From contig DASQJY010000028.1 in assembly GCA_035630815.1 (NCBI GenBank), positions 264,187 through 328,186 of the forward strand: a stretch of 64,000 bases of DNA, written 5' to 3'. Positions 20,572-64,000 of this stretch are shown piece after piece. Made by a program: the position numbers and the translations under genes. The stretch is from Thermoanaerobaculia bacterium. GTDB lineage: Bacteria; Acidobacteriota; Thermoanaerobaculia; Gp7-AA8. A model generated the notes under the pieces. The model was not told the DNA's origin, did not search any database, and was given only the letters and a program-made list of their open reading frames with translations. Every line of letters begins with the position of its first letter. Positions within the stretch are counted from its first letter, which is position 1.

Positions 20572-20623
20572 TGGTTACTAGCACGAGTAATACCCAATAA
20601 GCCCCAACGCCGGAGGACCTACG

Positions 20624-28495: not shown

Positions 28496-28557
28496 TCTGA
28501 CCAGTAAAACACCAGCGTCAATCACGCCCCAAGCGCAGATGAACCGTAAAACCGTCC

Positions 28558-29400: not shown

Positions 29401-29411
29401 TACTTCTTCCC

Positions 29412-31507: not shown

Positions 31508-31533
31508 TCGTCTTGGAAAACGGTTACAGATCG

Positions 31534-31666: not shown

Positions 31667-31668
31667 AT

Positions 31669-32370
31669 TCAGAGCGCCGATAGCGTTTCGACCGCCAACG
31701 GGAAGTCACTCAACGCAGGTACAAGCGCGTCGCGCAGAGAGTCCCGACGTCGCGCCGTCGCGGTGAGGAGCAGGATCGCGGCGGGCGCAGGTCCTATCCA
31801 TTCAGTGAGGAAGCCGATGAGTTCCAGGGTCTTGGGCACGAGTACGGTCTTCACTGACTCGCCGCCCAAATCCACCTCGATTGCTAGCGCGGCACCCGGA
31901 TCATCGGCCTGCGGCTGCCAGAGGCAAAGGAGATCCGGCCAAACGGTGAGTTTCCCCGCGAACAATCGCTGAACCATCCATGCGGGTAGTAACTCGTCCG
32001 GTGCAGGCGTGCGGCGGCGCATCGCGAGCGCCGCGTTCACGATCTCCACCGTGTGCGCGAAGTCCTTCGCCGGAACGGGGCCGCCCGCCGGGAAGAGGTC
32101 GGACGCGGGTGCGAAGCTGCCATCCCCGAGGAAGTCGCGGCCTTTCTTCGTGAGCCAGCAGACCTGGATGCCGTTGCCGTGCAGCCGCTCGACGCCGAGA
32201 TAGCCGCGCTCCGTCGAGCGGTCGAAGAAGCGGGTGACGATCGTTTCCGATACGTCAGGGAAGAGCCAGCCTTTGAGCTGCTGGCGGGTCATCATGCGGA
32301 AGCGGCCGACGAGCGCGTACGCCTCCAGATCGCGCGGGAGGATACGATGTTTCTTTGTCGTCGTCGCCAT
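31669..32370 (-). CDS. Replication-relaxation (PF13814-like) winged-helix protein, copy B
   Basis: From the ATG at 32370: MATTTKKHRILPRDLEAYALVGRFRMMTRQQLKGWLFPDVSETIVTRFFDRSTERGYLGVERL...WLTKKGRDFL. Its start shares one base with the upstream TAA stop. Confidence 0.7.
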   Translation of the reverse strand: MATTTKKHRILPRDLEAYALVGRFRMMTRQQLKGWLFPDVSETIVTRFFDRSTERGYLGVERLHGNGIQVCWLTKKGRDFLGDGSFAPASDLFPAGGPVPAKDFAHTVEIVNAALAMRRRTPAPDELLPAWMVQRLFAGKLTVWPDLLCLWQPQADDPGAALAIEVDLGGESVKTVLVPKTLELIGFLTEWIGPAPAAILLLTATARRRDSLRDALVPALSDFPLAVETLSAL

Positions 32371-48837: not shown

Positions 48838-50763
48838 TCACTTGAGGTCGATGCATTGCAATCTACGGCAGAGGATGTCGCGATAGAACTTTCTCGCCGC
48901 CGAGTGTTCCTCAGCCTCGATATACCCCTGGAGGGCAGTGCTGATCGATGCGAAAGTCATTGTTGGCTTTTGTCCGCGGAGCTTCGCGAGCTCGACGTAC
49001 GTCTTCGCGGCTGCCGCCAGCGCCACGTCGGGTCGCGCCGAGATCGTATCGACGGCATAGTCGGCGTCCGCTCCCGCAGCGCCTCCTCCTATCCCGCCAA
49101 ACAGGGCGCCGCCGATCCCACGGCCCGTATGGCCGACACGCGAGCCATAACCGAAATGCGAGTACGTGTCCTGCAGCGCATGCAGGTACGTTCCAATGTC
49201 GGACGCCTGGCCGGTAGCGACGGCGGTCGCCCTGAGGGTTGCCAGCCTCTCCGTTGAGACGAAGTGAAAATCGCGCCGGGCTTGGAAATGCGTCGGAACC
49301 GTCGGGCTTCGTTCACCGTGGTCAGGTGCCTCGGTCGCAGCCGCGATCGCGGCCGCTTCCGCGGGCGTATACCCCGCGGCGATGGCCAGGAGGTTCGTGA
49401 GATCCCGATGAAAGTCGGTGCGGTACAAGCCGGTACTGTCGTAGAAGTTCACCGGCTGGTTCAGCACGTACGAGTAACGGTTCCACGTCTGTGGCCGGAA
49501 AGGGTTCGCAGCGGCGCGGTCGATCGAGAGGAAGCGCCCCCAGTTCGGGTTGTAGAAGCGGGCGTGCATGTAATCGAGGTAGGCGCTGTGCTCTCCGCCC
49601 CAGGTCTCGATGCCGTCCCGTTCGTGGCCCGTAAAATGTGCGGTCTGTTCGCGCTCGTAGCCGCGCGCGCGTTCCTGCTGGAGGCTCGTGATCTCCACGC
49701 CGAACGGAAAGTAGTCGTGCGTCGAGATCTGGCCGCCGCCGGCGTTGGTGACCAGGCGCGGCGTCCCGAGGTGGTCCAGGTGGTAGTGGCGCCGGCCGCC
49801 CTCGGCCGTTTCGCGCTGCGACGCGATCAGGCGCTGGCCGTCGTGATAGTCGTCCTCGCGCCAGAGGAAGTAATCCAACTCGACGCTTTCGTACTCGCGC
49901 ACTTTCCGGCCGCCGAGATCCCGCAGCGTCCAGCGCCAGAGACCGCCGTCGTACCCGCTCCCGGGGATGACGGCGAGCCGTTCGTCGCCTGGCGTGTAGA
50001 CGTACGTGGAATTGGACGCGTCATCGAAGTTCATCATGCCGAGCTGGTCGTAGGCGTAGCTGCTGACAGGAGAGTCGATGAGATTGCCCGCGTCGTCGTA
50101 CGCCACGCCGAGGGAGGGGGAAAGACGGTTCGTGGAGACCTCTACCGGGAGGTTGATGGTCACGCCGTCGTTGACGAGCTTCGTGAGATTTCCTACCGGA
50201 TCGTATTCATACGATTCCTGATGGGACGCGAGGCCGCTGTAGACCTTCGCGGTGGCCAGCCTGCCGATCCGGTCGTACGTGAACTGGTCCGTCTTCCCCA
50301 GCGTGTCGGGCCCGATGGACCAGACGTTGCCGGAGCCGTCGTAGGTGTAGGTGCCGCTCGTGAGGACGTCGACGCCGTTCGTGGTCAACAACGGCATCGT
50401 GGCCTCAGCGAGCGGAGCGCGGCCCCCGGCTTCACCGGCCGCGCGGCGGGCGGCGAGACCGACCACCATCCGCTGAACGCTGCGCACTTCCGCGCGCTGG
50501 CCGAGCGCGGCCGCCGCTTCGGCGGTCATCCGGACGACGAGACGCGCGCCGCTGCGCTGCTCGACCCGGGCCCCGTAGGCGGCGGGGTCGAACGCCGGCA
50601 CGCCTTTGCGGGCCGGCTGCAGCACGATGAGATAGACGTCCTGCTGGGCGGCAAAGGCGTCGGCGGCAGGCTGCTGCGCCACGAGCGTGGACTGCGCAGC
50701 AAGGACAACGACGACTGCAAGAATGCGTGACGCCGCGTGCATGATCGAATGACGCGTTTTCAT
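48838..50763 (-). CDS. secreted RHS-repeat-associated core protein with His-rich C-terminal (putative effector) domain
   Basis: The ATG at 50763 forms an ATGA overlap. Signal MKTRHSIMHAASRILAVVVVLAAQS. YD repeats (YTYDGSGNV, FTYDRIGRL, YEYDPVGNL). Core YHLDHLGTPRLVT...THDYFPFGVEI...ARFYNPNWGRFLSIDR...NRYSYVLNQPVNFYDSTGL. ~190-aa tail with HFVS...YLHALQDTYSHFGYGSRVGH. Confidence 0.9.
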   Translation of the reverse strand: MKTRHSIMHAASRILAVVVVLAAQSTLVAQQPAADAFAAQQDVYLIVLQPARKGVPAFDPAAYGARVEQRSGARLVVRMTAEAAAALGQRAEVRSVQRMVVGLAARRAAGEAGGRAPLAEATMPLLTTNGVDVLTSGTYTYDGSGNVWSIGPDTLGKTDQFTYDRIGRLATAKVYSGLASHQESYEYDPVGNLTKLVNDGVTINLPVEVSTNRLSPSLGVAYDDAGNLIDSPVSSYAYDQLGMMNFDDASNSTYVYTPGDERLAVIPGSGYDGGLWRWTLRDLGGRKVREYESVELDYFLWREDDYHDGQRLIASQRETAEGGRRHYHLDHLGTPRLVTNAGGGQISTHDYFPFGVEITSLQQERARGYEREQTAHFTGHERDGIETWGGEHSAYLDYMHARFYNPNWGRFLSIDRAAANPFRPQTWNRYSYVLNQPVNFYDSTGLYRTDFHRDLTNLLAIAAGYTPAEAAAIAAATEAPDHGERSPTVPTHFQARRDFHFVSTERLATLRATAVATGQASDIGTYLHALQDTYSHFGYGSRVGHTGRGIGGALFGGIGGGAAGADADYAVDTISARPDVALAAAAKTYVELAKLRGQKPTMTFASISTALQGYIEAEEHSAARKFYRDILCRRLQCIDLK

Positions 50764-53700
50764 TGAGTTCTCTCCCGAAGCTGCTCGATGGGCGTGAAGC
50801 GGAACCAGATCGGGACCGGGTCCGCGTACGCCGAAACCGCGAGCTCGTGTGCCTGCAGCGCGTTGTCCATCCAGGTGCGAAGGGCCGTGATGTGGGCGGC
50901 CCGGATGAAGCCGTCCGCGGCGGGTGGCGCCGTTCCGGCCGGGAGGATCGCCGCCCAGGTCAACTCGCCCAGGCCGGCGGCGGCGCGGATTGCGTTGACA
51001 GCGGAGAGGAGCTGGTCGAAGTGCCGGTAGTCGACTCGCGTGTCCGCTCCCGCCGAAAGGTATGCGATCAGCGTGGCGAGATCGTTGTTGCTGGGGGCGG
51101 ACTGGGCGCCGATGGCGGTCAGGGCGCGGACGCGATAGACGCACGCCGAGCCCGTACCGCAGGTGCTGTCGACGTACGAAAGCGACGACGTCGTGGCCAC
51201 GGCGCTGAACGTGCCGCCATTGCGGCGCTCGAGCCGGTAATTGGCGGCGCCGGGCGTCGCGGTCCATTGAACGAAGACGCTGGACGTGCCTTGACGCGTG
51301 GCTACGAGCGACGTCGGCGGGTCGAGCGGTTGCTCGGGGGTGAGGACCGCATGGGCCGATTCGACCTTGCCGCAGTTGGACGTCACGATCACCCAGAACG
51401 ACTGCTGCGCCGTGATCGGCGGGGTCGTGAAGGAGGACGAGGTGGCACCAGGGATCAGCGACTCCTCTTCGGACGACGTCGTGCCGTACCACTGGTACGA
51501 GAACGGGCCGGTGCCGGACGCGGTCACGGTGAGGTTTTTGGTGAGTCCGTGCGTCACCGGACCGGAGGACGGGCCGGAGGTAATCGTCGGCGCGGTACAG
51601 GTGCGCGAGAAACCGCTGTATGTGATCGCCTCGGGGCGTGCCAGTCCGTCGGGATCGGGAACGACCTGCTCGAGCACTCCGTTGGCGTGCGAGGTCCAGA
51701 GCCGCAGTCCGTTGGCGGCATGGTCGAGCGTGGCGAGGGACGCGCGTGCCGTGAAGGCACCGGTGGAGGAAAAGTCGCCGGCGGTCAGGCTCCTCGGTCC
51801 CCGGTCGTCATACGCGGTGCGTGTTCCGTCGTACGGAGCCTCTCCGCATGGGACGGTCGTGCAGACGGGATAGATGTGGTCGACCGGCCGGTCGAGCGCG
51901 TCGTACGCAAAGGCCTGCTCGAATTTCTGCAGATGGATTGCCGAATCGGGATCGTCGACGTACACCTGCCTGTCGACGGACGTCTCTTTGCGCGTAACCC
52001 GGCCGGCGCCGTCGCCGTAGGTCAGCGTTTCCGCGACCTTGATCAGACCGACGGTGGGAGACGGGTTGTAGCGGACGGCGGTGCGAAGCTTGCCGAGGCC
52101 GCGGTCAGACGCCGAGAGGTTGTCCTCGTAGAGCAGCTCTTTCATCGGCCGCCAGTGGTTCGCGGTGCAGGGATCGGCTACGAGCATGTTGCGAACGTCC
52201 ATCCGGCGGAGCCGCTCGGCGGCGTCGAACGTGAAATTGGTGTCGTAACGGCAGTCGGCGGTGCGCTTCTGCCTGGCGTGCCCGCGGGCATCGTAGAAGT
52301 AGGTGATGGTGCCGTTCTCGGGATTCGTTTCGGAGGTCAGGAGTCCGGCGCCGTCGTAGACGAACGAACGGGGCGCGGCGGACGACTTGTTTACGGAAGT
52401 GAGCCGGTTGCCGGCGTCGTACTCGTACGAAGTGGTGGCGACGTTCGCGCCCTCGAAATCTTCAATGACGGAGGTGAGCCGGCCGAGGAAATCGGACGTC
52501 TCCGCGGTCTTGACCCACCCCCACGTCGTCGCGGCCAGGGCGAGCATGGACGAACGGATGGTCCGGCGCGAGCTCGGATATGCGAAGGTGAACGACGTGT
52601 CGTCGGGCTGCTGTACCTCCAGCAGCCGTCCGGTCGTGTCGTAAATCCACTTCGTCTGCTTCGTGCCGGCGGGCATGGTCTCCCGCGCGCCTGTAGCCGC
52701 GGGAACGACGACCGACACGGCCGACTTGTGACCCTTCGCGTACTCGGTCCAGGTGGCGGCCCACTCGTCGGAATCGGCCGTAGAAAGGATGCGCTGCCGC
52801 TGCTGCATCACCCGGCCGAACAGGTCGTAGTGCGCGCGCGACTCGGCCATCGCGTTGACGCTGCAATTCGTCACGCCATTGGCGCAGTGCCGCGACGTGA
52901 CGCTCGGACCGGTGGTGCCGCTCGCTTCCGTGTATACGTGCTCCGTCCAGGCGCGTCCGGCGGGCCTCACGCCTGTCAAGCGGCCGAGCTGGTCGTACTT
53001 CAGCACCGTCTCCAGGCCCGCGGTGTCGCGCGTGCTGGACGGCAACCCCGAGGGAGGATCGATGGTCGCATCGAGAGCCTTGAAATTCATGCCCTCATAG
53101 CGCGTGGAGGCCAACGAGCCATATTGATAGGTGTGGTGAATGCGGTATTGCGGCGCGACGTTGCTCAGGTTTCCACTGCACGTGGCGAACCCCGCGCCGA
53201 GCGACTGCAGGTCACCGCCGTAGTACTCTTCCTGGGATACGTTTCCGTCGGTACTGCCGCCGCTCGCGTCCTGGTCCTTGAACACGGCGAGCAGGTCGAA
53301 TTCCGAGGCCGTTGCACCGCGAAGAGCACGTCTTCGCAGTAAACGGCCGTTCAGGGGATCGAAGCAGGCCTCCGTGCGGGACCGCGACAGGACCCCGGCG
53401 GTCGCGTGGACGTCCTTCGTCTCCACGAAGTCGTAGTTTTCCGTGAGCCACGACTCGCTCGGGTCGATGATGCGCACGCCATCGCTGGCCGTGGTGGGGT
53501 TGTAGTTCGTCGTGGTCACGCGTGTGACCGGGCTGTCCGATGAGCTGGTGGTGGTGGTCCGGTAATGACCGAGACCGTCGAAACCGGAGTAAACCTCGGT
53601 CGTCTCGTTTCCGTCCTCGAAGACCGTCAACCGCGATTTGAGGCGGCGGTTGTCGTCCAGGGCGGCGGCGGTCATGTCGTATTCGTACGTGACGTACGTG

Positions 53701-55289
53701 AGCCGCTTCTTGCCGTCGGGGAGCAGCGTGCGGGTGGAGATGTACATCCCCTTGTACGGGTTCGGGTCGTCCCCTGCCTGCGCCAACCGTTGCGTGAACG
53801 GCGCGCCATAATCGCGCTCGCGCGGGTAGCCGGAGGTCCAGGTCGAGAAAAAATGCGCGGTGGACGACCCGTCCGGCGCCAGGACTGTGTTGATGGACAC
53901 GGTCTTCATGTGCTCGTAGAGCGCCGAGCCGCTGTAGGTCCAGACTTCATCCGCGGCCTCGGTGGAGCCAGCGGTCTCCGTGACGTATTTCGTCCTGCGG
54001 CCTACACCCGCCGAAAAGGTCGGCGGCTGGAACTCCTCAGGCCTGACCGGATGGTGCTCGTAGTCGGGGGGAAAGCTATAGATCCGGTACTGCCATCCGT
54101 AGCGTCCCCGCGACGGCGTTCTCACTTCGATGAGACTGCCGGTGTAACTGCCGGGATTGTGGTGCGTGAGGATGTTGCTCAGTTGGTTCGGGACGGTGGT
54201 GCTGGTGACGGTGTCGCTGCGCACGCCGGCGGCGGGGGCACTCCCCTGCTGGGTCATGCCGATGTCGTAGGCCATGTCGTAGGACGAGCCGGAGGGAAGG
54301 CTCACTTTCGTGAGCAGCGGCACGAGGACCGTGGGAGACGGAAGATCCAGCGGGTCATACGGCTCCGGCCCGTCCGTCTTCTGGCGAGAGATGACCTGGT
54401 CGGAATAGGTGAAGAGGTAGTCGGCACGCTGCGAGGCGGAGCCGAAAGCAGCCAGGCTGGCCTGGCAGACTCGTTCTTTCATGAACGCGGCGTATTCGGG
54501 GCCAGTGGGGTGCAGATAGATGTAATGGGTGCGGTGTCCGTCCGCCACCTTCCAGGTCAGATAGGAGGTTCCGCACGCATCCTGATTGGCCGCCGGGATG
54601 CCGGCGGAGTTTGCGGGGTAAGGCGTGATGGTGACGGCGTTGTTGAAGCGGTCGTAGATCTTCCGGAGCGTGCCGTCGGCGGCGAATTCCCTGATCGTGC
54701 CGTCTCCCATCTCGAGCGTGTGGCTGACGATGGCTGTACCCGATTTGTTGATGGTGTGACGCATGTACGTGCCGGTGTGGCTGTAGTTGACGTCGGAGAC
54801 GTTCAGGTTGGCCGAATGGTGCAGTTGGGGATACAAATGATGATCGCTGCCGTCAGGAGCCTGATAGACCCAGTACGGCGTCCCCAGTCGCGACTCGGTC
54901 GGTGAGACCAGCCGGCCGAGCGAGAACAACCAGCCCATGCCGGCGTTCAGCTTCCGGATCGGGACGCTCCACGTCATCCATCCCCTCTGGTATTGCTGAA
55001 AAGGGCCGTCGGCGATGCGCACTTCCCTGCTCTCGTAGTCCCAGTTGTTTCCGCCGTACACGAGCTTGAACCCGTACGACAGGTTTCCTCCGGCCACATA
55101 GGTCGGCCCGACCGGGAGCGCGACGTTCAGGTTGCCGTTGAAGAGATTGATCACGTCGACGTCGCTGACGGCATACGCCTGTTGCGGCTTGACGCCTCTC
55201 TCGTTATTGGCGTGCTGTTGTGCCGCGGTGCGGTGGGCGAGCGACGCCAGGCCGCAGAAGAGGAATGCGATGAGCCTTGCGCGGCTCAT
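50760..55289 (-). CDS. 1509-aa secreted YD-repeat protein with C-terminal Ig-like and fibronectin-III domains
   Basis: Signal MSRARLIAFLFCGLASLAHRTAAQQ. YD repeats (YDQLGRLTGV, WIYDTTGRLLEV, YEYDAGNRLTSV, FVYDGAGLLTSE, YFYDARGH). GTGPFSYQWYG Ig-like domain. PPTSLVATRQGTSSVFVQWTATPGAANYRLERR...YRVRAL FN3 domain. Confidence 0.9.
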   Translation of the reverse strand: MSRARLIAFLFCGLASLAHRTAAQQHANNERGVKPQQAYAVSDVDVINLFNGNLNVALPVGPTYVAGGNLSYGFKLVYGGNNWDYESREVRIADGPFQQYQRGWMTWSVPIRKLNAGMGWLFSLGRLVSPTESRLGTPYWVYQAPDGSDHHLYPQLHHSANLNVSDVNYSHTGTYMRHTINKSGTAIVSHTLEMGDGTIREFAADGTLRKIYDRFNNAVTITPYPANSAGIPAANQDACGTSYLTWKVADGHRTHYIYLHPTGPEYAAFMKERVCQASLAAFGSASQRADYLFTYSDQVISRQKTDGPEPYDPLDLPSPTVLVPLLTKVSLPSGSSYDMAYDIGMTQQGSAPAAGVRSDTVTSTTVPNQLSNILTHHNPGSYTGSLIEVRTPSRGRYGWQYRIYSFPPDYEHHPVRPEEFQPPTFSAGVGRRTKYVTETAGSTEAADEVWTYSGSALYEHMKTVSINTVLAPDGSSTAHFFSTWTSGYPRERDYGAPFTQRLAQAGDDPNPYKGMYISTRTLLPDGKKRLTYVTYEYDMTAAALDDNRRLKSRLTVFEDGNETTEVYSGFDGLGHYRTTTTSSSDSPVTRVTTTNYNPTTASDGVRIIDPSESWLTENYDFVETKDVHATAGVLSRSRTEACFDPLNGRLLRRRALRGATASEFDLLAVFKDQDASGGSTDGNVSQEEYYGGDLQSLGAGFATCSGNLSNVAPQYRIHHTYQYGSLASTRYEGMNFKALDATIDPPSGLPSSTRDTAGLETVLKYDQLGRLTGVRPAGRAWTEHVYTEASGTTGPSVTSRHCANGVTNCSVNAMAESRAHYDLFGRVMQQRQRILSTADSDEWAATWTEYAKGHKSAVSVVVPAATGARETMPAGTKQTKWIYDTTGRLLEVQQPDDTSFTFAYPSSRRTIRSSMLALAATTWGWVKTAETSDFLGRLTSVIEDFEGANVATTSYEYDAGNRLTSVNKSSAAPRSFVYDGAGLLTSETNPENGTITYFYDARGHARQKRTADCRYDTNFTFDAAERLRRMDVRNMLVADPCTANHWRPMKELLYEDNLSASDRGLGKLRTAVRYNPSPTVGLIKVAETLTYGDGAGRVTRKETSVDRQVYVDDPDSAIHLQKFEQAFAYDALDRPVDHIYPVCTTVPCGEAPYDGTRTAYDDRGPRSLTAGDFSSTGAFTARASLATLDHAANGLRLWTSHANGVLEQVVPDPDGLARPEAITYSGFSRTCTAPTITSGPSSGPVTHGLTKNLTVTASGTGPFSYQWYGTTSSEEESLIPGATSSSFTTPPITAQQSFWVIVTSNCGKVESAHAVLTPEQPLDPPTSLVATRQGTSSVFVQWTATPGAANYRLERRNGGTFSAVATTSSLSYVDSTCGTGSACVYRVRALTAIGAQSAPSNNDLATLIAYLSAGADTRVDYRHFDQLLSAVNAIRAAAGLGELTWAAILPAGTAPPAADGFIRAAHITALRTWMDNALQAHELAVSAYADPVPIWFRFTPIEQLRERTQ

Positions 55290-55996
55290 TCGTGCACCGC
55301 CGTTGCAGCTACATCCATGAGGTAAGGATCGACGGCGATGAGGACGTCGTGCGGACGGAAGGCGACCGGCGGCGCCGATTCACCGGAAACGGGCCGCATG
55401 AGGGCGGCGCCCGGCTGCACCGTTCCGAAAGCAACGTTGCCATCCATGCCGGAGCCGTCCATGAGCGACACCTTCCATGCGCCCTGGTCGGGACGGACCC
55501 AGATCGCCTCGACCCATTGCGCGTCGAAGTCGAAGGCGTCGAATTCCTGCCCGGAATTCCGCTTCATCCGGAGCGCCTGCGCGGGACGCACGTGCAACGG
55601 AGTGCCGGGCGGTGACGCAACCACGAAGTCGCCGCTCGAATAATCGACAGCGGCATAGATCGAGGTCGCGGCGACGGGCCGCTGCAGGTCGAGACGGGCC
55701 TCGCCGCGCTCGTCGCTCTGCAGCGTCACTGAGACGTTCATTGTGCGCATGGTGTAATTGCGCGCCTCGCGCACAATGCCGAAGACGATTACCTGCGCAC
55801 CAGGTGTAATGCCGGTAATGACGACCGCCCCCTGCTCGAATGCAATCGCAGGTGGACCGATCTGCTCCGCGGCGCGCGCGGACTGCGCGCAGAGCGCCAC
55901 CGGGATGCCGGTCAACACTGCAGTCAACACGACGCGTCCTGCAAGCCGGCGGCGATGACGAAGCCGTTCCATGATGAATCCGATTCGACCGTTCAT
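55286..55996 (-). CDS. secreted hypothetical protein
   Basis: Signal-like RVVLTAVLTGIPVALCAQSARA. 4-nt overlap with the downstream giant gene. Beta-rich composition. Confidence 0.6.
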   Translation of the reverse strand: MNGRIGFIMERLRHRRRLAGRVVLTAVLTGIPVALCAQSARAAEQIGPPAIAFEQGAVVITGITPGAQVIVFGIVREARNYTMRTMNVSVTLQSDERGEARLDLQRPVAATSIYAAVDYSSGDFVVASPPGTPLHVRPAQALRMKRNSGQEFDAFDFDAQWVEAIWVRPDQGAWKVSLMDGSGMDGNVAFGTVQPGAALMRPVSGESAPPVAFRPHDVLIAVDPYLMDVAATAVHE

Positions 55997-56011: not shown

Positions 56012-58015
56012 CTACTGCATCGACAGCAGGACCAGGATCTCGCCCACGCCGCCCTGTAATGGCTCGAGCGCCTTGCCGATGATCGTGCCGGGCTGATGGA
56101 ACTCGCGGCCGTTGATCTGCATCGGCTCGGAGCGCATGGCCGTGCCGGAAATGTCGCTGGTCACGAGCAGGTCGCCGACACGAACGGCATGGACGCGGGC
56201 GTCTACACGGACTTTGACGCGGCCGGTGGTGGCGATCTGCTCTTTTTCGGCGCCTTCGACGCCGAGGAGGATTCCGGGAGAGGCGGAAACGACGCCGGCG
56301 ACCGTCGTGTCGTACTGGCGGGACGACGGCATGACCTCGTTGTTCCGGTCGCGGTTCAGCACCACCACGGTTCCGGCGGCCATGTCGACCGTGGCCGGGA
56401 CCCATTCGGCGAGATCCTGGTAGACCGCACCGATCACCTTCGCGCCGGTGATGTTTCCGGTGGCGATGATGTTGCCGGTGGTGGTGAGGTTGCCGGTGGC
56501 GGTGATGTTCCCCGTGGTCAGGAGGTTCCCGACCACGTGCAGTTTCGCGGAGGGGGTGGCGGTGCCGATGCCGATGTCGCCCGTCTGCGTCACGCGAAGG
56601 CGCTCGTTGGCCGGACCGGTGCCGCCTGTGTACATCCGGACGTTGCCGGTGGTGACGTTGCCGGAGCTCAGCGAAAGGCCACCGGTCTCCAATGAGGTCA
56701 GGGCAACCGTTCCGGCGGCGTGCGCGGAATTCGGCTGGTTCGTATACGTGGCGCCGGTTGCGGTCAGCGAGCCGCCGGTCCCTACGGCGCCGGAGTTGAG
56801 GATGAAGGACGTGTACGACGCCGGATTGGTGTTCTGCATCGCGATGTTGCCGAGCACGTGCAGCTTCTGCTGCGGGGTGGTGGTGCCGATGCCGATGGTG
56901 CCCGAAAAGAAGTTCGTGTCGTCGGGGCCGTTCTGATAGATGCCGAAGTCATTGATTGCTTCGGCGTCGGCGATGTACACGCCATAGCCGGTATTGACGG
57001 TGCCGCCACCCGACTCGACCGCGGCGTGAACCGCGGTCGCCGTGGTCACGGTGCCGGGGAAGCCGTAGTAGTTGCCGGCGTGGAAGTACCCGCCGGTGGC
57101 CCAGGTCACTGTGCCCGGTCCGTAGTTCCACGCGTCCATCTGGCCGGCGATGAGGCCGCCGGTGTTCGTCACGCCGAGGGGAACGGTGTTGACGGCGTTG
57201 ACGAACAGCCCCGCATCGTCCTGCCTGATGGTCGCGTCCACCACAGCGTGCTGGTAGACGAACATCGCCCGTCCGTTGTCGGAGTAATTGTAGGTGGAGA
57301 GCTTGCCGTGATTGCTCGTCGCGCCGATGCTGACGTTTCCGTCGGCGAGAATGCGCATGCGCTCGGCGGAGCTCGTACCGAAGATCATCGGCCCGCTGGC
57401 GAAGTTCCAGAGCTGGAGCGCGTTCGCCCCGCCCGTCGCTCCGGTGGAGGCGGAACCGGTGCTGGAGAGCTTCGCCACCTGTGTTCCGCCCGCGAAGAAG
57501 CGCACCTGCCGCGACGCCTCGGCGGTGGCCGTCCCGGCGTTGGCGTTGTTGATCTCGATCCCGGTCGCGGCGTCCTGGTCGCGGCGCAGGATCGTGTAGC
57601 CGTCGCCACGGACCTTGAACAGCGCGGCGTCGCTCGCGCTCAGGACGGTGAAGCCGGACGCAGACGTCTGCGTGCCGAGCTTCAGGAAGACATCCGGAGT
57701 GGCGGTGGCGGCTCGCAGGAGCACACCCGAAGCGGGTGCGGTGGCATTGTCGAGCAGGAGGTCGCCGTGATTGCCGGTGACGTCGGCCTGCGCGCCCACT
57801 GCCGACGGCCGGTTGCGGCCGGACTGCAGCACTTTCAATGGACGATCGCCCTGCGGCACCTCCGGCGCCGCGGCTGGCTCCTCGGCCTCTTCGCGCCCTG
57901 GCATTTCGATCACCGGGATCGGCGGAGGCGCGGAGGGATCGACCACGGGATCCTGGGCCAGGAGTACGGGAGCGGCAAGGCAAAGTGCGACCAGTGCGAC
58001 ACGAAATGTCGGCAT
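56012..58015 (-). CDS. secreted tail-fibre-like repeat protein
   Basis: The ATG at 58015 (AAGGA upstream) gives signal MPTFRVALVALCLAAPVLLAQ. Repeated IGTTTPQQKLHVLGNI / IGTATPSAKLHVVGNL motifs. Pentameric TGN repeats (TTGNITATGNLTTTGNIIATGNITG). C-terminal DLAEWVP...GDLLVTS...IIGKALEPL domain. Confidence 0.75.
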   Translation of the reverse strand: MPTFRVALVALCLAAPVLLAQDPVVDPSAPPPIPVIEMPGREEAEEPAAAPEVPQGDRPLKVLQSGRNRPSAVGAQADVTGNHGDLLLDNATAPASGVLLRAATATPDVFLKLGTQTSASGFTVLSASDAALFKVRGDGYTILRRDQDAATGIEINNANAGTATAEASRQVRFFAGGTQVAKLSSTGSASTGATGGANALQLWNFASGPMIFGTSSAERMRILADGNVSIGATSNHGKLSTYNYSDNGRAMFVYQHAVVDATIRQDDAGLFVNAVNTVPLGVTNTGGLIAGQMDAWNYGPGTVTWATGGYFHAGNYYGFPGTVTTATAVHAAVESGGGTVNTGYGVYIADAEAINDFGIYQNGPDDTNFFSGTIGIGTTTPQQKLHVLGNIAMQNTNPASYTSFILNSGAVGTGGSLTATGATYTNQPNSAHAAGTVALTSLETGGLSLSSGNVTTGNVRMYTGGTGPANERLRVTQTGDIGIGTATPSAKLHVVGNLLTTGNITATGNLTTTGNIIATGNITGAKVIGAVYQDLAEWVPATVDMAAGTVVVLNRDRNNEVMPSSRQYDTTVAGVVSASPGILLGVEGAEKEQIATTGRVKVRVDARVHAVRVGDLLVTSDISGTAMRSEPMQINGREFHQPGTIIGKALEPLQGGVGEILVLLSMQ

Positions 58016-58113
58016 ATCGATTCCTTTTCTCGAACGGGTGCGCCGGCGGCGACGATGCGCCTGCGCGTTGCGGATCTTTTGTTGGTTGTTGGACTGACTC
58101 GTTTCGTAGAGAC

Positions 58114-59256
58114 TCAGAAACGAGCGGCGTATTGCCATGCGCTCTTTGCGAGCGCGGACGCGGAGGTGCCGGGATGCGCTTCGGCAAACGCGGCGAGCCG
58201 CCGCGCACCCTCGTCGAAGAGCCCTTCACGCATGCAGATCAGCCCCTGTTCGAGGTCGGAGCCGGAGCGGCGCGCTGCCTGGAGCTCCGCCAGCGCCTCC
58301 GCGGTCAACAACCGGAATCGCGCCGGCGGATCGGTCTCCGGCGGCAGCACTTTCTCGCCCGACCCGGAGCGGAGAACCACCTGCCACTGGTACGTCACGC
58401 CGCGTTTCAGGGCGGTGGGGCTGGTCCAGGCGGTCCCCTTCAACGCGGGGCTCTCCAGCACGCGGTTGTAGCGGCTGTCGAATACCTGCACCACGCCCAT
58501 CTGCGTGCTGTCGTCACGGGACCAGCGGAATGCCGGCCGGTCCGCCTCGAGCACGACACCCACGGGGCCGAGCAGCGCGGCGGTGCCCGGCGCGACCGCC
58601 CCCGCCGATCGCTGACCGCCCGCTGTCCCCTGGAGCGAAGCGACGAGATTCGCGCTGGCGAGCGTGCCGCGCTGGAGCGCCGTCGCCACCCGGCGCAGCG
58701 ACGGTGGGAGTTGCTCCAGGGGATTGCGATCGGACGCCGTGGCAGGAGCGGGTGCGAGTGCGGGTGGACTGTCTCGCGGAAGCGGCACAGTGGCCGGAGC
58801 ACGACGGACGGATTCGACGCCGCGATGCGGCTCCGGTTCAGGCGATGCGGTGTTCCAGACGAGTGCGGCACCTCCGGCGACAAAGGCCGCGATCGCGGCC
58901 GCGATGGCGAAGCCGCGGAAGCGGGCACGAACGGCGACGACACGCACGGCTTGCCCGAGATCCGCGGCCTCGGCACGGCACATCGCGCAGACTTCCAGAT
59001 GGTCGCCAGCCGCCGTTCGTTCGTCCGCGTCGCCGAGACCGTCCACGTATGCCGAGAGCTCTTCGAACGAAAGGTGGTCGCCGTCCAGCGTTTCCAGTGC
59101 CTGCCTCACCGCGACGCGGGCCATGGCGGAGTCGGCGACCGTGCGGCGGCACGAGTTGCAGCGGCCGAGGTGGTCGTCGGTCGCCAGCAGCTCCTGCCCT
59201 GAGAGCTTGCCGAGCCTGAAGCGCTCGAGGAGCCCGGCGTCGGGGTGATTCGTCAT
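58114..59256 (-). CDS. membrane-spanning anti-sigma factor with two zf-HC2-like motifs
   Basis: HLGRCNSCRR and HLEVCAMCRAEAADL. TM FAIAAAIAAFVAGGAALVW. ~220-aa extracytoplasmic domain. 4-nt overlap with the sigma gene. Confidence 0.7.
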   Translation of the reverse strand: MTNHPDAGLLERFRLGKLSGQELLATDDHLGRCNSCRRTVADSAMARVAVRQALETLDGDHLSFEELSAYVDGLGDADERTAAGDHLEVCAMCRAEAADLGQAVRVVAVRARFRGFAIAAAIAAFVAGGAALVWNTASPEPEPHRGVESVRRAPATVPLPRDSPPALAPAPATASDRNPLEQLPPSLRRVATALQRGTLASANLVASLQGTAGGQRSAGAVAPGTAALLGPVGVVLEADRPAFRWSRDDSTQMGVVQVFDSRYNRVLESPALKGTAWTSPTALKRGVTYQWQVVLRSGSGEKVLPPETDPPARFRLLTAEALAELQAARRSGSDLEQGLICMREGLFDEGARRLAAFAEAHPGTSASALAKSAWQYAARF

Positions 59257-60287
59257 TTCGACCTTCCGTAATCCGGCACGCGTGTCTTCCGCAGGAGCCG
59301 CGACCGGGCGGCCCGCCTGAGATTGATGACCTGTTGTCTCGTCACTCCAAGCCGCGCGGCGATGAAGAGGTCGTCCGCGGGAAGGCGGGGCCAGATGAAC
59401 GCGAATTCGTCGTCGCTCATCTCCAGCGCGCGCGCGATGTCGCGGACCGTCGCGACGGCGGCGACGGGGAGGAGGTGAGTGACCGACTCACCGGCGGAAT
59501 CGCGAGCCTGCAGCAGCAGCGCAACTCGCTGGCGAAGCGGCAGTTCCAGGATCTCGTTCCACAACCTGCGCAGGTCCTGGAGCTGGATCAGCTCCTCGGC
59601 CGGATGGGTGACGGCCGAGCTGAGCTCGACCGCCTCGTCGAGCGACTGCGGGGTCTCCTTGCGCGGAATCCCGGCCGCGGCCGCAAGCACCGTGACCACG
59701 TCTTCGACGGTTCGCGGCGCACCGGCGGCGGTCAGTAGGGAACGAAGGTCGGGACGGAGATCGCCGCGCCCTCCGCCGAAGGCGAGCGGCGGCATCGGTG
59801 AGTGCTCATCTTGAGGATTGTCCTTCCACGCCGCAAGTCCACAGACCATCACGCCGCGGTAGGTCCAGACGGCCAGGGCGGGATCGTGATTCAGGAAGTA
59901 GAGCGTCCGGTTCCTCAGCTTCGCGCGGAGCGGAAAGTGCTTGCGGACAAAATCCTCGAACGCGTTGAAGGTAACGGTCGCAACGTAGTCGGGGAAGCTC
60001 TCGATCGGCGGGTCGTCGATCCCGAGCAGGCGGCGGAAGCGGCTCACGAGCCGGACGATGACGTCGTGCCGCAGGTCGGCGACGTACTCGACATCCATGC
60101 GTGCCCTCCTGAAGCGCGCCGACAGGATCTTTTCGATCCGGTCGTATGCATGCTCGGCCAGGATCGCCGCGACCGCGGCCTCACGCTCGGTGTCGGACCG
60201 CGCAGTCAGGACGCGGTCGAGCATCGGATCATTCAGCCGCCTTTCCGCCCTCGGGTCCAACGACTGCTCCTTCTGCAGAGAGAACAC
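59253..60287 (-). CDS. ECF-like sigma-70-family factor, atypically long (up to 344 aa; the listed start is GTG and may be further downstream)
   Basis: Region-2-like ADLRHDVIVRLV...YVATVTFNAFEDFVRKHFP. Region-4-like ILELPLRQRVALLLQ ... IAARLGVTRQQVINLRRAARSRL. Long inserts lie between and within the regions. Confidence 0.65.
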   Translation of the reverse strand: MFSLQKEQSLDPRAERRLNDPMLDRVLTARSDTEREAAVAAILAEHAYDRIEKILSARFRRARMDVEYVADLRHDVIVRLVSRFRRLLGIDDPPIESFPDYVATVTFNAFEDFVRKHFPLRAKLRNRTLYFLNHDPALAVWTYRGVMVCGLAAWKDNPQDEHSPMPPLAFGGGRGDLRPDLRSLLTAAGAPRTVEDVVTVLAAAAGIPRKETPQSLDEAVELSSAVTHPAEELIQLQDLRRLWNEILELPLRQRVALLLQARDSAGESVTHLLPVAAVATVRDIARALEMSDDEFAFIWPRLPADDLFIAARLGVTRQQVINLRRAARSRLLRKTRVPDYGRSK

Positions 60288-60337
60288 TCATTCATGGAGA
60301 CGCAGACCGCGAGCCGATATTGCCATGCCAGGCCGGC

Positions 60338-63300
60338 TCACTGCGAAGTTGTGATCAGGACGAACGGCGACCAGTAGTAAGGATGGCTGAACCGGGGGTT
60401 CCGCAGCAGGGCGAGTTGCGCCTCGCGGAGGGCGAATGGGTAATCGGCGCCGCTCAGGCTCGCCTGCCGGTGAAACGCGATCATGAGTTGCGCGGTGCTC
60501 GCCGAGTCGACGGCCCATTGGCTGACGACCGTGTTCCTGCAGCCGGCCACCATCAGCGCCCACGACATTCCGACGACGCCTTCGCCGGGCGTCAGTCCTC
60601 CGTCGGCGGACTCGCACGCGGACAGGACGACGAGGTCGGCCCCGAGGTCGAGCTCCATCATCTCGCGCGCCTCGAGGAGACCGTCGTCCGTGTCGGAGGC
60701 GCCGAGGACGACGGCGGAGTACATCGGGGACGCGTCGTCGATGATCCCGTGCGTGGCGAAATGGAGCACGGGATACTCCGCGGCGAGCTTCTTCGCGGTC
60801 GTTTCGGTCGCCTGCGCACCGACGAGGGCGCGGCTCGCCGGGCCGTACATCTTCGCGATGGCGAACACCTCCGCGCGCGCGTCGGGAAGCGGGCCCAGAC
60901 TCGCGCCGCGACTCACCGCACGCGTCGACACATCAGACCCGGGCGGGAGGAGCGGATCGGCCAGGGCGAGCAAAGCCGGCGCTGTCGCGGTCACGCTCCT
61001 CGGCCGCTGCCGGCGTTCGTGCCGCAGCAACGCCAGTGAAGGGGCGTAGGCAATGGCGATCCGCTCGATCAGATGCTCGCCGCCGGCCGATTGCAGTGCC
61101 TGAAACGGCAGGCGCCAGAGCATCCCGTCCGGGACGATGAAGAGGCGGCGCTTCGAGCCGATGCGCGAGGCAAACGGCGCAACGAGCAGGTCGTACAACG
61201 AGCGGGCGGATTCGCGATAGTCGAGATTCCGCTCTTCGATCCGGCCGACGAAATGACGGATGCGCTCCTCGAGCTCCACCTTCGGCAGCGCGATCCGATG
61301 GACGGCCACGTCGACGTCGTCTCCCGAGCGTTCGACGTAGAACGCGAACGTCTCCTGGTCCTGGACGGAAAAGGTCAGGAGCGCTTCGGCGGGATCCGGG
61401 AGCAGGCGATGCACGTCGCCGACGATGACTTCGGGACTGATGGCAACGGCCCCCCGAGGCTCCGGGCCGCCGCTCTCCATGCGCGAAAGAAAGACCTGCT
61501 GCTCGATGCGCTGCTCGGCCAGGCGCTCGCGGAGCACGGCGGTCGCCGAGCCGTCGCCGGACGCGAGGAGGCTCCGGTTCAGATCGGCGATGGCGCGGTT
61601 CAGCGCTGCGTATCGTTCCCGGTCGGCGGCGCTCATCGAAGGAAGCCGGTCGACCTGGCCACGAGCCATCGCCGTGGCCAGCGCCCGTGCGCGAAACCGC
61701 TCCGCGACCACGAGCGCGTCGCGCGGACGCCCCTGTCCGACGAGCAGGGCAACCAGGTCGCGATACGGCTGCGCCTTGTTGCGCATGAACGCGGACAGGG
61801 TCAACTCGTCCGCCCCGACCCCCGCGCGCTTCGCCTCGATCAACCCGATCGACGATTCGAGTGCCAGGATCGCCTCCGGGAGCCGGCCAGCGGCACGGAG
61901 GGCATGTCCCAGCGTCGCCCGAACCACCCAGGAGGGGTCGTAGCGATACAGCTGCGCCTTGCCGAACGACTGGCGAAGGAGGACGTCCGCGCTGGTCGCC
62001 GTGGCGAGGGCCTCCTCGGTACGCCCCTGGAGCAGATGAATGCGCGCGTGCAGTTGCAGCATGTCCGCCTTGAAATACTGCTCGTCGCTCAGGCGCACGA
62101 GCTCGAGCGCGGCGAGGATCTCCACCTCGGCTTCGCCATAACGGTGCGCGTCCGCCAGCATCTCCGCGAGCTCGAAGCGAGTCGACGCCACCGCCACCTG
62201 GTCCGGTTCACCGGGACCTGCCCGCGCCAACAACTTCCGCATCAGCGCCGCGGCTGCATCGTGGTTCCCCAGGGCACGTTCGGCGACGGCAAGGTCGGAC
62301 GTCGCGACCGTGATGAATTCGCGGTCGCCCAGCCGCTCCGAGCACCGCAACGCCTCGGCGGCGTAATGCCGTGTCGCCTGCGCGTCCTGAAGGTCGCCGA
62401 ACACCGTGTAGAGCTGAAACGCGGTCGCGCAGCGCCCTTCACGCCAATCGAACCGCTCCGCCGCCGACGCCAGCGCGGACGCTGTCATCACGGCGTCGCG
62501 ATACGAGCCGCGGTAGACCAGCAGGTTCCCTCGCATGTAGAGGGCCTTCATGGCGGGGCGCGGATCATCGATCACGTTCAGCAGGGCGGCCGCAGCGTCG
62601 TACAGGGCCATTGCGGCTTCATGGCGGCCGTTCTGCCACTCGGCCGTTCCGGACATGAGCAACGCGGCGGCGCGCACGTCAGCAATGCCGGTTCCCTCCG
62701 CATATCTCCGTCCTTCCGCCGCCAGGGCGGCTCCGCGCTCCGGCTCTCCCGTGTGCAACAGATGCGCAACCCGCATCCGAAGGCTGAGGATCGCGGCGGC
62801 CGGCAGACCGGCGCTGCGCGCGACGGAGCTCACGACGTCCAGCGTGGGTGCAGTCGTCGCGACAAATATTGCGGTGTCCACCTCGTCAACCAGCGCCACG
62901 AGGAAGGTCTCGAGATCCACATACGGCGCACAGGCAGCGATTCCCTGCGGAGTGACATCGCCCGCGGCGACCAGCCGGCGGGCGAGCACGCGCTCCTCGA
63001 CCATGATGTTCCGCAGCCGCCAATCGCCGCCGGAACGCTGCGCCTCGAGGTGCCAGCGGTCAGGGAAACGGATCGGCGTGCGGGAGGTGCCTCGCGCGGC
63101 TGCCGTGGCGTGGACGGTCACGCGCAGCGTCATCGCGGTGTCGGTCGCTGATTCGACCGACACCTCATGGGCGCGGATCGAGATGCAGTCGTACGTCTCG
63201 AGGTCTTTCCGGAGGAATTGCCAGTCCCGCGAAACCGTCGCCTCGGCGGTGCTCAGGGAAGCGAGAGCATCGATGTCACCTGACCGCAGGGCGCGGACGA

Positions 63301-63397
63301 ACCGCTCCGCTGTCAGCTCTGGGGTCAGCTCCGCATCCGCCGGCGCAGCATTCGCCGTCAGCGCAAACACGCCGAATACCACGAGGAAGCGGAGCAT
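60338..63397 (-). CDS. secreted CHAT-domain (caspase-like) protease with NTF2-like N-domain and TPR array
   Basis: Signal MLRFLVVFGVFALTANAAPADA. Central TPR-like repeats. C-terminal LHFATHGIIDD (His) ... ADLVVLSACESADG (Cys) ... GMSWALMVAGCRNTVVSQW is typical of CHAT. Confidence 0.92.
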   Translation of the reverse strand: MLRFLVVFGVFALTANAAPADAELTPELTAERFVRALRSGDIDALASLSTAEATVSRDWQFLRKDLETYDCISIRAHEVSVESATDTAMTLRVTVHATAAARGTSRTPIRFPDRWHLEAQRSGGDWRLRNIMVEERVLARRLVAAGDVTPQGIAACAPYVDLETFLVALVDEVDTAIFVATTAPTLDVVSSVARSAGLPAAAILSLRMRVAHLLHTGEPERGAALAAEGRRYAEGTGIADVRAAALLMSGTAEWQNGRHEAAMALYDAAAALLNVIDDPRPAMKALYMRGNLLVYRGSYRDAVMTASALASAAERFDWREGRCATAFQLYTVFGDLQDAQATRHYAAEALRCSERLGDREFITVATSDLAVAERALGNHDAAAALMRKLLARAGPGEPDQVAVASTRFELAEMLADAHRYGEAEVEILAALELVRLSDEQYFKADMLQLHARIHLLQGRTEEALATATSADVLLRQSFGKAQLYRYDPSWVVRATLGHALRAAGRLPEAILALESSIGLIEAKRAGVGADELTLSAFMRNKAQPYRDLVALLVGQGRPRDALVVAERFRARALATAMARGQVDRLPSMSAADRERYAALNRAIADLNRSLLASGDGSATAVLRERLAEQRIEQQVFLSRMESGGPEPRGAVAISPEVIVGDVHRLLPDPAEALLTFSVQDQETFAFYVERSGDDVDVAVHRIALPKVELEERIRHFVGRIEERNLDYRESARSLYDLLVAPFASRIGSKRRLFIVPDGMLWRLPFQALQSAGGEHLIERIAIAYAPSLALLRHERRQRPRSVTATAPALLALADPLLPPGSDVSTRAVSRGASLGPLPDARAEVFAIAKMYGPASRALVGAQATETTAKKLAAEYPVLHFATHGIIDDASPMYSAVVLGASDTDDGLLEAREMMELDLGADLVVLSACESADGGLTPGEGVVGMSWALMVAGCRNTVVSQWAVDSASTAQLMIAFHRQASLSGADYPFALREAQLALLRNPRFSHPYYWSPFVLITTSQ

Positions 63398-64000
63398 GGG
63401 GCCAGTCTAGCGGCATTTGGTGCGCGGTGACCGCAGTCGCCGCTCGTTCCGCGCGTCCCCGCCCACCCAGGTCCCTCGCGGGCGGGGAGCGCAGGATGCG
63501 AGCCGCAGCGGCACACGCGTTAAACGGTGTGCAGTGCGGTGACTGCGGTGAGGGTGTCTTAAAACCATTTGCTTCACTCCTTGGATGAGGAGAGCGAGAG
63601 AGGATGTGTCGAGAGCTTCGAGCGGATTACACGACACAATATCTGTTACCGCCGGCGTTGGAGGATAAGTACAACTTGCGTGTTCGAAACGTATGAAGGC
63701 GCAGCACTTGCGCCCTGAGTACCGCTTCGCTCACTCACCAACCGGGAGAAAAACTACCGCATGAATTGGCCACCTTCCCATGCCACACAAACGGGGATCA
63801 GGAACTGTCGCAACTCGACGGCGCGTGCACTCTGCATGGCCGTCCTCGTCGTCCTCGGGCTGAATCTCAGCTCGGGAGAGGCGTAGCGCAGTCCTGGAGC
63901 CTCACCCTGGCCCAGCGTCAGGCGTACCTGAACTACTACGCGCCGTTGATCCTGAAACGCGGCGACGAAAACAACGCAAGCAGGGGCGTGACTGGCTCAC

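Follow-up and report, generated by a model that had tools for sequence, protein, structure and literature searches.

A secreted TPR-CHAT protease encoded beside a sigma/anti-sigma pair in Acidobacteriota: a candidate trans-acting site-1 protease

Can a caspase-fold protease make the first cut in an anti-sigma factor? The first cut of anti-sigma factors in response to extracytoplasmic signals is known for few protease types, and a locus of a Thermoanaerobaculia bacterium (contig DASQJY010000028.1) raises the question of whether a CHAT protease may be among them. The window, as used below, is the whole 64-kb stretch of this contig that was analysed; coordinates are positions within it, and L001-L088 and P0009-P0249 are labels of loci and proteins of relatives. 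By its sequence relatives, the window belongs to Acidobacteriota and most probably to the class Thermoanaerobaculia. At 58114-63397, on the minus strand, the window carries three genes that encode a putatively secreted NTF2-like/TPR/CHAT protease (1019 aa; 60338-63397), a divergent sigma70-related factor resembling the extracytoplasmic function (ECF) group (344-aa open reading frame, ORF; 59253-60287) and a single-pass zinc anti-sigma factor (380 aa; 58114-59256). The sigma gene stands between the other two, and its stop codon overlaps the anti-sigma start codon by 4 nt (ATGA). An earlier note on this DNA had described the trio and proposed that the CHAT protein is an alternative site-1 protease of the anti-sigma factor. 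All elements of the trio were confirmed. Our analysis makes it very probable that the CHAT protein is functionally coupled with the sigma/anti-sigma pair, and we give roughly even chances to its being the site-1 protease of the anti-sigma factor, within a switch that would lead from the periplasm to the cytoplasm.

Conservation and architecture of the module

The sigma alignment alone was used to scan one genome per species, which gave 373 confirmed matches. The best 80 loci were analysed, and their flanking genes were found by hidden Markov model searches of six-frame ORFs. These best 80 of the 373 loci are all from Acidobacteriota (Thermoanaerobaculia, Blastocatellia/Pyrinomonadaceae, Vicinamibacteria and Bryobacterales). 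An anti-sigma factor of the same family is encoded in 76 of the 80, nearly always immediately after the sigma factor. In 51 of the 80 loci, the pair has a CHAT ORF of ~930-1170 aa no more than 1 kb away. Where at least 4.3 kb are available on both sides, the count is 37 of 46 (~80%), and L021 adds one more with an over-extended ORF. By comparison, the 499 kb of distal flanking DNA contain 5 CHAT genes, a background of about 1 per 100 kb. The adjacency of CHAT and sigma genes is far beyond chance.

This linkage has outlasted several rearrangements. The order CHAT, sigma, anti-sigma is seen in the window and in L001, and the order sigma, anti-sigma, CHAT in L007, L085 and L086. In the commonest layout, found in 39 loci including L003, the CHAT gene is convergent with the sigma/anti-sigma pair; L004 has the same layout with an M4 peptidase gene and another gene inserted. 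Close homologues of the CHAT protein (52-63% identity), and one that is 32% identical, are all encoded beside the same sigma and anti-sigma genes in differing orders. In an all-against-all clustering, the only widely shared genes were those of the sigma factor (85 loci), the anti-sigma factor (80) and the CHAT protein (61), and the other neighbours vary. Peptidases of the S8 and M4 families occur only sporadically, near split modules in L007 and L004, and no other protease is conserved. The three-gene co-conservation and CHAT co-occurrence that the earlier note had put forward as a check on its proposal are thus borne out.

Some genomes hold two or more complete or partial modules (L011/L066, L057/L061, L012/L065, L041/L050, L021/L085, L025/L075 and L058/L084), which suggests paralogous, insulated signalling channels. 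Three distant TPR-CHAT proteins were also seen. P0018 has an unrelated context (caspase/VWA/tubulin), P0021 is encoded next to a sigma gene of canonical size, and P0009 stands beside a pair of 333-aa genes with the size and layout of a sigma/anti-sigma pair.

The CHAT domain of the window protease (aa ~670-1019; 60341-61390, minus strand, as for all features of the three genes below) matches Pfam PF12770 at residues 729-1015 with 226 bits (cutoff 24, E=7.5e-67). Pfam TPR_12, TPR_14 and TPR_16 also match the protein, and an above-threshold CHAT domain with N-terminal TPRs is the architecture of TPR-CHAT proteases. The AlphaFold2 (AF2) model, built on 50 homologues (pLDDT 87.4, pTM 0.85), consists of an N-terminal hydrophobic helix, a low-confidence stretch, an NTF2-like part, helical repeats and the CHAT fold. 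The catalytic residues His883 (codon 60749-60751) and Cys928 (codon 60614-60616) are located in FATHG and LSACES, which correspond to the canonical hAtHG and LSAC motifs. In a comparison of the CHAT-domain profile with the PDB, they align with H862 and the Cys motif VVLAACEG (C907) of DdvA and with the dyad motifs of Csx29. The earlier note had left it to a proper alignment whether the dyad is present; it is, and in all 57 of 57 sigma-linked CHAT homologues. This set shows no variation in the dyad or in the motifs around it, so catalysis appears to be under selection.

A single-sequence PDB search with the CHAT protein gave nothing useful, and the full-length profile was swamped by TPR proteins. 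Repeated with the CHAT domain alone, the profile search gave DdvA as the best PDB sequence match (E=1e-7). A Foldseek search with the model placed Csx29 at the top (8eey_B, E=2.2e-15), followed by DdvA (8rw5, 8rot) and separases, with E values from 2e-15 to 1e-12 and a probability of 1.00. The TM scores stay low (0.25-0.49), as the superhelix is different.

The N-terminus of the window protein (aa 1-~20, MLRFLVVFGVFALTANA/APADA; 63338-63397) looks like a Sec signal peptide, and AF2 gives a helix at residues 2-13 followed by a low-confidence stretch at 13-22. Hydrophobic, signal-like N-termini can be read from the sequences of nearly all of ~55 orthologues. The signal peptide claimed by the earlier note therefore has equivalents across the family. 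Residues ~25-133 (62999-63325) have sub-threshold Pfam matches to DUF4440 (E=0.0016), SnoaL_2 (E=0.006) and SnoaL_3, as do several orthologues, and their AF2 model has an alpha+beta topology of four helices followed by four long strands. On these two grounds the NTF2-like label holds at the level of the fold; the domain is missing from some orthologues. The long TPR array of the earlier note is seen at residues ~134-650 (61448-62998) in the Pfam TPR matches, in the paired AF2 helices that form a superhelix of ~500 residues and in PDB profile matches to TPR proteins. Its supposed role as the ligand sensor is something we can only infer.

The anti-sigma factor matches zf-HC2 (PF13490) with 22.2 bits, exactly the Pfam cutoff. 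Two tandem zinc-type units of the form H..HxxxCxxC span residues 4-36 and 61-93 (58978-59247). In alignments of 5 and 40 homologues, H4/H29/C33/C36 are invariant and H61/H86/C90/C93 nearly so. Weak PDB profile matches were found to ChrR, the anti-sigma domain of DdvA, RslA and RsiW. By its motif the protein is a zinc anti-sigma factor, predicted to bind zinc and to bind and inhibit the sigma-like factor. In the AF2 model (pLDDT 82) the units form two three-helix bundles. The second runs into a continuous helix (aa 91-136), whose hydrophobic end at ~115-136 is the predicted membrane segment. The outer part is modelled as a disordered linker (~138-175), a small helical unit (179-209), a disordered loop (210-226), an Ig/Fn3-like beta-sandwich (227-316) and a four-helix TPR-like tail (319-379). 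A fold search with the beta-sandwich (~90 residues) matched generic Ig/Fn3 domains only. About 240 residues are outside the membrane, slightly more than the ~220 of the earlier note, and are predicted to be extracytoplasmic as that note had said. Both the CHAT protein and the outer part of the anti-sigma factor are thus predicted to be periplasmic.

Variants of the anti-sigma factor are found among the relatives. The homologues in L012 and L063 carry one zinc unit only. In L009 (10163-12936), the closest genome homologue of the window sigma protein (65% identity) is paired with a different anti-sigma factor of 657 aa. This protein carries a single zinc unit, and by clustering and visual reading its outer part groups with TPR-type proteins. 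No CHAT gene was found within 8-10 kb in L009. This natural partner swap could inform on the role of the outer domains.

The sigma ORF opens at GTG 60287, and the likelier start is TTG 60260, which is preceded by an AAGGAG Shine-Dalgarno sequence. The window protein has no Pfam match at E<=0.01, and PDB searches with the profile or the sequence gave no useful match. TIGR02937 matches it with 33.8 bits (E=2.3e-8), below the cutoff of 42.9. Within the family, 12 of 46 members match Sigma70_r2 (PF04542; best E=1.4e-9), and none of the 46 matches the sigma4 models PF04545 and PF08281. Hhalign comparison of 83 members with canonical ECF sigma factors gave a probability of 81.6% (E=1.1e-5) and placed sigma2 at residues 33-112 and sigma4 at ~230-296. 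A profile made from 7 canonical ECF sigma factors ranks the family directly behind true ECF proteins. At the family level this evidence is adequate for a sigma70 relationship, as far as remote homology can tell. The members are ~320-360 aa long, beyond the compact size of ECF sigma factors (~170-220 aa), with a conserved insert of ~115 aa that separates sigma2 from sigma4. At the C-terminus they have a further segment, LGVTRQQVINLRRAARSRL, that is helix-turn-helix-like. The insert might be what the second zinc unit of the anti-sigma factor binds. The family comprises 1,971 clusters at 50% identity (E<=1e-3), or 1,468 at E<=1e-10. Since the Pfam sigma4 models pick up none of its members, the family has probably been overlooked in ECF censuses based on domains.

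A promoter-like motif in the module loci

The module loci have in common a bipartite motif of 38 nt, GG[T/C]AATA[T/C]-N15-[C/A][G/A]TCT[T/C]C. Its position weight matrix (PWM) has 87 matches in these loci and 1 in shuffled DNA. The motif resembles ECF promoters, with 'AAx' at -35 and 'CGTC' at -10, 16 nt apart. A same-strand ORF starts within 400 nt of 78 of the 87 copies. These ORFs encode the anti-sigma factor in 27 cases, the sigma factor in 8 (including the window), variable flanking proteins in ~40 and the CHAT protein in 1. The 27 copies directed at the anti-sigma gene are located in the spacer between the sigma and anti-sigma genes, so that in Blastocatellia-type loci the motif would drive the anti-sigma gene alone. 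In convergent loci the motif lies upstream of the CHAT gene yet is directed away from it, toward the next gene. The cargo behind the motif differs by locus (MacB-like permease, M4 peptidase, YD/RHS and unknown proteins), whereas the CHAT gene is constant.

Bipartite k-mers sought upstream of the sigma genes yielded no convincing candidate, and the motif was discovered through TATTACC, which came from 7-mer enrichment upstream of CHAT genes. TATTACC itself was considered as a CHAT promoter and as an antisense promoter after the sigma gene. Both were rejected, since the other strand is ECF-like (AAT-N16-CGTC) and precedes a same-strand ORF in those 78 of 87 cases.

Three PWM sites of at least 11 bits are found in the 64-kb window, and the two best, at 60290-60327 and 58102-58139, flank the sigma/anti-sigma pair. 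The core of the former, GGCAATAT-N15-GTCTCC (60296-60324, minus strand), is the best match of the window and lies 9 nt upstream of the sigma ORF. The core of the latter, GGCAATAC-N15-GTCTCT (58108-58136, minus strand), overlaps with the stop codon of the anti-sigma gene; a gene for a 667-aa protein begins ~90 nt further downstream. The string CATGGCAATA occurs in the window only at the 60296-60324 site and at 58130-58139 (expected 0.00), and GGYAATAY-N15-GTCTCY occurs twice, only at the two sites (expected 0.03). In L035 and L086, too, the motif precedes the gene for a homologue of the 667-aa protein, and the 667-aa gene is putatively the first gene of a sigma-controlled cargo operon. The third-best match (54350-54387, minus strand, 21.5 bits) is inside a gene for a 1509-aa YD/RHS protein and could be an internal promoter or a chance occurrence.

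ECF sigma factors usually autoregulate, and on this ground the motif would be the cognate promoter of this sigma family. If so, the regulon would comprise the sigma/anti-sigma genes and the adjacent cargo, with the CHAT gene outside it. The near absence of the motif before CHAT genes argues that the CHAT protein acts upstream of the sigma factor, rather than being a mere target.

Evidence for cleavage, alternatives and related systems

In the mechanism that we propose, the cytoplasmic zinc domains of the anti-sigma factor would hold the sigma-like factor at the membrane. The NTF2-TPR-CHAT protease, secreted on its own, would have the outer part of the anti-sigma factor as its partner and probably as its substrate. 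The His883/Cys928 site would become active upon a cue in the periplasm, which either the TPR/NTF2 part or the complex would sense. The protease would then cut the anti-sigma factor outside the membrane (site 1), either at a loop with the consensus L-[R/L/M]-[G/S] or in the juxtamembrane linker, and the membrane stump would become a substrate of an RseP-type intramembrane protease. The freed sigma factor would use GG[C/T]AATA-N15-GTCT-type promoters to transcribe both its operon and the cargo operon next to it, which in the window carries the genes for the 667-aa and YD/RHS proteins.

Several features of the two proteins are consistent with a protease and its substrate. In the anti-sigma model, both the juxtamembrane linker of ~40 residues and the loop are disordered. 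The candidate recognition or cleavage site in the window is Q215-R216-S217 (58606-58614, minus strand), in the loop of the outer part, where the pLDDT is below 50. Across 77 anti-sigma homologues, column 216 is R in 37, M in 24, L in 15 and V in 1, mostly with L before it and mostly with G or S after it. Reported P1 residues are R, L and M for separase and craspases, with Leu and Met for Csx29 (PMC11506125), and those of Csx29 overlap the R/L/M column. Pairwise divergence of the anti-sigma outer domain follows that of the CHAT protein (r=0.88) more closely than that of its own cytoplasmic domain (r=0.74). Given the sigma factor, the partial r with the CHAT protein is 0.59 for the outer domain and 0.30 for the cytoplasmic domain; the distances behind all four values are non-independent. 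The CHAT columns 843 (E/Q), 887 (D/N) and 911 (R/W) track the R versus L/M state of the loop, and they do so even in a Blastocatellia R-type clade whose CHAT proteins are otherwise nearer the L/M group. We regard the loop column and the co-divergence as suggestive only, and the covariation with the CHAT columns as a lead only.

The proposal of the earlier note is thus plausible and partly supported. The intact dyad, the co-conservation, the predicted periplasmic location and the near absence of the motif before CHAT genes speak for it, and from these we infer the cleavage itself. Its extension to the whole family is more tentative, and we rate it a little short of an even bet. In this wider form, a stand-alone periplasmic TPR-CHAT protein of an Acidobacteriota family (~2,000 sigma clusters at 50% identity, often with several modules per genome) would be the dedicated, trans-acting site-1 protease of a double-zinc anti-sigma factor. 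The L-[R/L/M]-[G/S] loop would set the specificity, and the atypical sigma factor would drive variable cargo through GG[C/T]AATA-N15-GTCT.

Several points weigh against cleavage by the CHAT protein. At least 6 loci with ample flanks have the sigma gene and no CHAT gene nearby (L009, L038, L042, L049, L071 and L088), and 3 of these carry an ordinary anti-sigma factor. With the convergent layout being the commonest, the CHAT gene is usually on a separate transcript. If the cut fell at residue 216, the stump would keep ~80 periplasmic residues, above what RseP-type proteases usually tolerate without trimming, and the sequence of the juxtamembrane linker is not conserved. The covariation between the loop and the CHAT columns amounts to one or two independent evolutionary events only. 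In DdvA, the only relative that has been studied, CHAT activity and autoproteolysis are likewise undemonstrated (PMC11506125). The identification of the window sigma protein, by remote homology, is the weakest part of the trio.

These points leave room for other readings of the locus. The TPR-CHAT protein may be a periplasmic partner of the anti-sigma factor that does not cleave it. It would then be a protease tethered or inhibited by the anti-sigma outer domain, as in the securin-separase pair, with other envelope substrates. Or its TPR/NTF2 part would be a co-receptor that, by binding or letting go, alters the conformation of the anti-sigma factor, with the site-1 cut made by another protease (DegS-, Prc- or PrsW-like). 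This would be supported equally well by the linkage and the co-divergence. TPR arrays are protein-binding modules, and the TPR-like tail of the anti-sigma factor suits docking. The TPR-CHAT part of DdvA acts mainly as a steric block to RseP, with dyad mutants free of a phenotype in unstimulated cells, and separase is kept inactive by a bound pseudo-substrate (PMC11506125). Against this stands the selection on catalysis indicated by the 57 of 57 invariant dyads and motifs. The sigma and anti-sigma factors are also the only constant neighbours that could be a dedicated substrate, and with S8 and M4 peptidases only sporadic, the loci offer no other conserved protease. We consider binding without cleavage, the main rival reading, possible but rather unlikely. 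A different arrangement, with the CHAT protein as an output of the switch, would make it a sigma-controlled effector or a maturation protease for secreted cargo (the YD/RHS and 667-aa proteins). YD/RHS toxins commonly require proteolytic processing. ECF sigma genes often adjoin their target genes, the CHAT gene heads the gene row of the window with no terminator predicted between the genes, and the contexts of ECF54 sigma genes, with CHAT, subtilase and carboxypeptidase, have been interpreted in both ways. This reading is weakened by the distribution of the motif, which precedes the CHAT gene in 1 of 87 cases and points away from it in convergent loci, and by the variability of the cargo, whose families change from locus to locus while the CHAT protein is constant; YD/RHS proteins are present in only 10 of ~85 loci. 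The CHAT protein as an output is in our view improbable.

The insecure identification of the sigma protein raises the further question of whether the 344-aa protein is a functional sigma factor at all. If it were not, the trio would be a non-transcriptional protease system, or the adjacency would be functionless. The window protein indeed lacks Pfam and PDB sequence matches, Sigma70_r4 is matched by none of the 46 family members, and the protein exceeds a typical ECF sigma factor by ~140 residues. Against this stand the TIGR02937 match (E=2.3e-8), the Sigma70_r2 matches in 12 of 46 members, the hhalign probability of 81.6% over sigma2 and sigma4 and the rank of the family right behind true ECF proteins in the search with the canonical profile. 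The gene is translationally coupled to that of a protein with an H-x3-C-x2-C anti-sigma motif and is accompanied by an ECF-type promoter-like motif, and the adjacency statistics exclude chance. We consider this last possibility very remote. Site-1 cleavage by the CHAT protein remains the reading that we prefer, and the comparisons below refer to it.

The closest known system is DdvA of M. xanthus (2024), a single polypeptide in which a zinc anti-sigma domain and a membrane helix are joined by a flexible linker to a periplasmic TPR-CHAT part (PMC11506125). Its authors proposed self-cleavage by the CHAT part as the site-1 step before RseP and could not trigger the cleavage. Such fusions were found only in Myxococcota and one Comamonas, and only a subset of the DdvA-like pairs is linked to defence (PMC11506125). 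Our module has the same elements: a zinc anti-sigma domain, to whose second zinc motif that of DdvA is weakly matched, one membrane helix, a flexible periplasmic linker, a periplasmic TPR-CHAT protein with a His-Cys dyad and an adjacent ECF-type sigma factor. Unlike in DdvA, they are divided between two polypeptides. The protease is a separate protein that has a predicted signal peptide and, in addition, an NTF2-like domain, and the anti-sigma factor has two tandem zinc motifs and an unrelated outer domain (beta-sandwich and TPR-like tail). The sigma factor is divergent and ~340 aa long, the distribution is in Acidobacteriota rather than Myxococcota, and PADLOC detected neither CBASS nor CRISPR nor any other defence components among the module and cargo proteins tested.

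A DdvA-like fusion was also seen among the relatives. P0047 (L008, 9153-13372), on a metagenome contig, is a zf-HC2-TPR-CHAT protein of 1123 aa, with a gene for a 283-aa sigma-like protein before it and one for an S8 peptidase after it. The idea that the split system arose by simple fission of such a fusion was considered and rejected: the anti-sigma profile matches P0047 at the zinc motif only, and the sigma profile has no significant match to the sigma-like neighbour. The two are therefore treated as analogous architectures, not as demonstrated orthologues.

Proteolysis of a sigma inhibitor by a TPR-CHAT protein is experimentally established for the craspase of type III-E CRISPR (Cas7-11), where Csx29 cleaves Csx30, an inhibitor of the ECF-type CASP-sigma, in the cytoplasm (PMC10028731). 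Both systems pair a TPR-CHAT protein with a sigma inhibitor and would turn a proteolytic signal into transcription; the substrate in our module is a candidate, and Csx29 is the top structural match of its protease. Craspase, however, is cytoplasmic, RNA-guided and CRISPR-associated, and Csx30 is neither a zinc anti-sigma factor nor a membrane protein, whereas our module is predicted to be extracytoplasmic, with no CRISPR component evident in the neighbouring genes examined. Canonical regulated intramembrane proteolysis (DegS/RseP-RseA, PrsW/RasP-RsiW and Prc/RseP in cell-surface signalling) resembles it in that the anti-sigma factor spans the membrane once, has its sigma-binding domain in the cytoplasm and bears an outer domain that would first have to be removed. 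Single-pass topology, disordered outer linkers and a bulky outer domain, the prerequisites of such a cascade, are all seen in the model of our anti-sigma factor. The translational coupling of sigma and anti-sigma genes, and an ECF-type promoter-like motif before the operon that suggests autoregulation, are also alike. The candidate site-1 enzyme differs in being a clan-CD cysteine protease encoded inside the module, rather than a serine or metalloprotease whose gene lies elsewhere. ECF54 sigma factors of Actinobacteria have genomic contexts with CHAT, subtilase and carboxypeptidase, for which proteolytic control was suggested (PMC8999054, PMC7826278). A sigma gene conserved beside a CHAT-protease gene is common to both. 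ECF54 proteins are of canonical ECF size, lack an anti-sigma factor and belong to another phylum, whereas the family described here is accompanied by a zinc anti-sigma factor and escapes the Pfam sigma4 models.

The earlier note had called a CHAT protease in this role mechanistically new. That is overstated, since the DdvA proposal (PMC11506125), Csx29/Csx30 (PMC10028731) and the CHAT neighbours of ECF54 (PMC8999054) came before. The concept of a CHAT site-1 protease is not new, and the split form, with separate protease and inhibitor, is apparently undescribed: a full-text literature search found no description of a split, trans-acting, phylum-wide CHAT/anti-sigma form with an unclassified sigma family. 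In DdvA the protease and its substrate are the same polypeptide, and the split module offers two proteins that can be mixed, mutated and co-folded. This natural division makes the question of a caspase-fold site-1 protease directly testable. If the reading is correct, this would be the first case of its kind in which protease and substrate are separable, and the DdvA hypothesis could be tested on it directly. The analysis also brings to light a large sigma family of abundant soil bacteria (~2,000 clusters at 50% identity) together with a candidate promoter motif and candidate regulons that include secreted and YD/RHS proteins.

Neighbouring genes and minor features

The last 15 kb of the window form a single minus-strand gene row with the CHAT gene at its head. 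Behind the anti-sigma gene lies that of the 667-aa protein (56012-58015), which is predicted to be secreted; with ATG 58015 taken as the start, it has a signal peptide. It has no match in Pfam, NCBIfam or PADLOC and belongs to no known family. Homologues of it adjoin the module in L035, L037 and L086. The row continues with same-strand genes at 48838-55996 that may be cargo, with matches to Pfam RHS_repeat, Ig_7 and RHS and to TIGR01643. They encode a 236-aa protein with a signal-peptide-like N-terminus, the 1509-aa YD/RHS-repeat protein (50760-55289) and an 884-aa RHS protein (48838-51492). The 10 of ~85 loci with YD/RHS proteins have them flanking the module. A sigma-70 promoter and terminator scan of 55-64 kb predicted no promoter and no minus-strand terminator, and an Rfam scan of the same region gave no match.

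A GC-rich inverted repeat (CCCCGCCC...GGGCGGGG) is present at 63455-63492 on the minus strand, 55-95 nt upstream of the CHAT start codon. It has no Rfam match and is surrounded by apparently non-coding DNA, at least 600 bp long, which reaches the end of the window. Elsewhere in the window, three stretches (2001-8000, 20001-22000 and 28001-32000) have a markedly lower G+C content of 0.55-0.59, compared with ~0.66 in the remainder, and may be acquired DNA.

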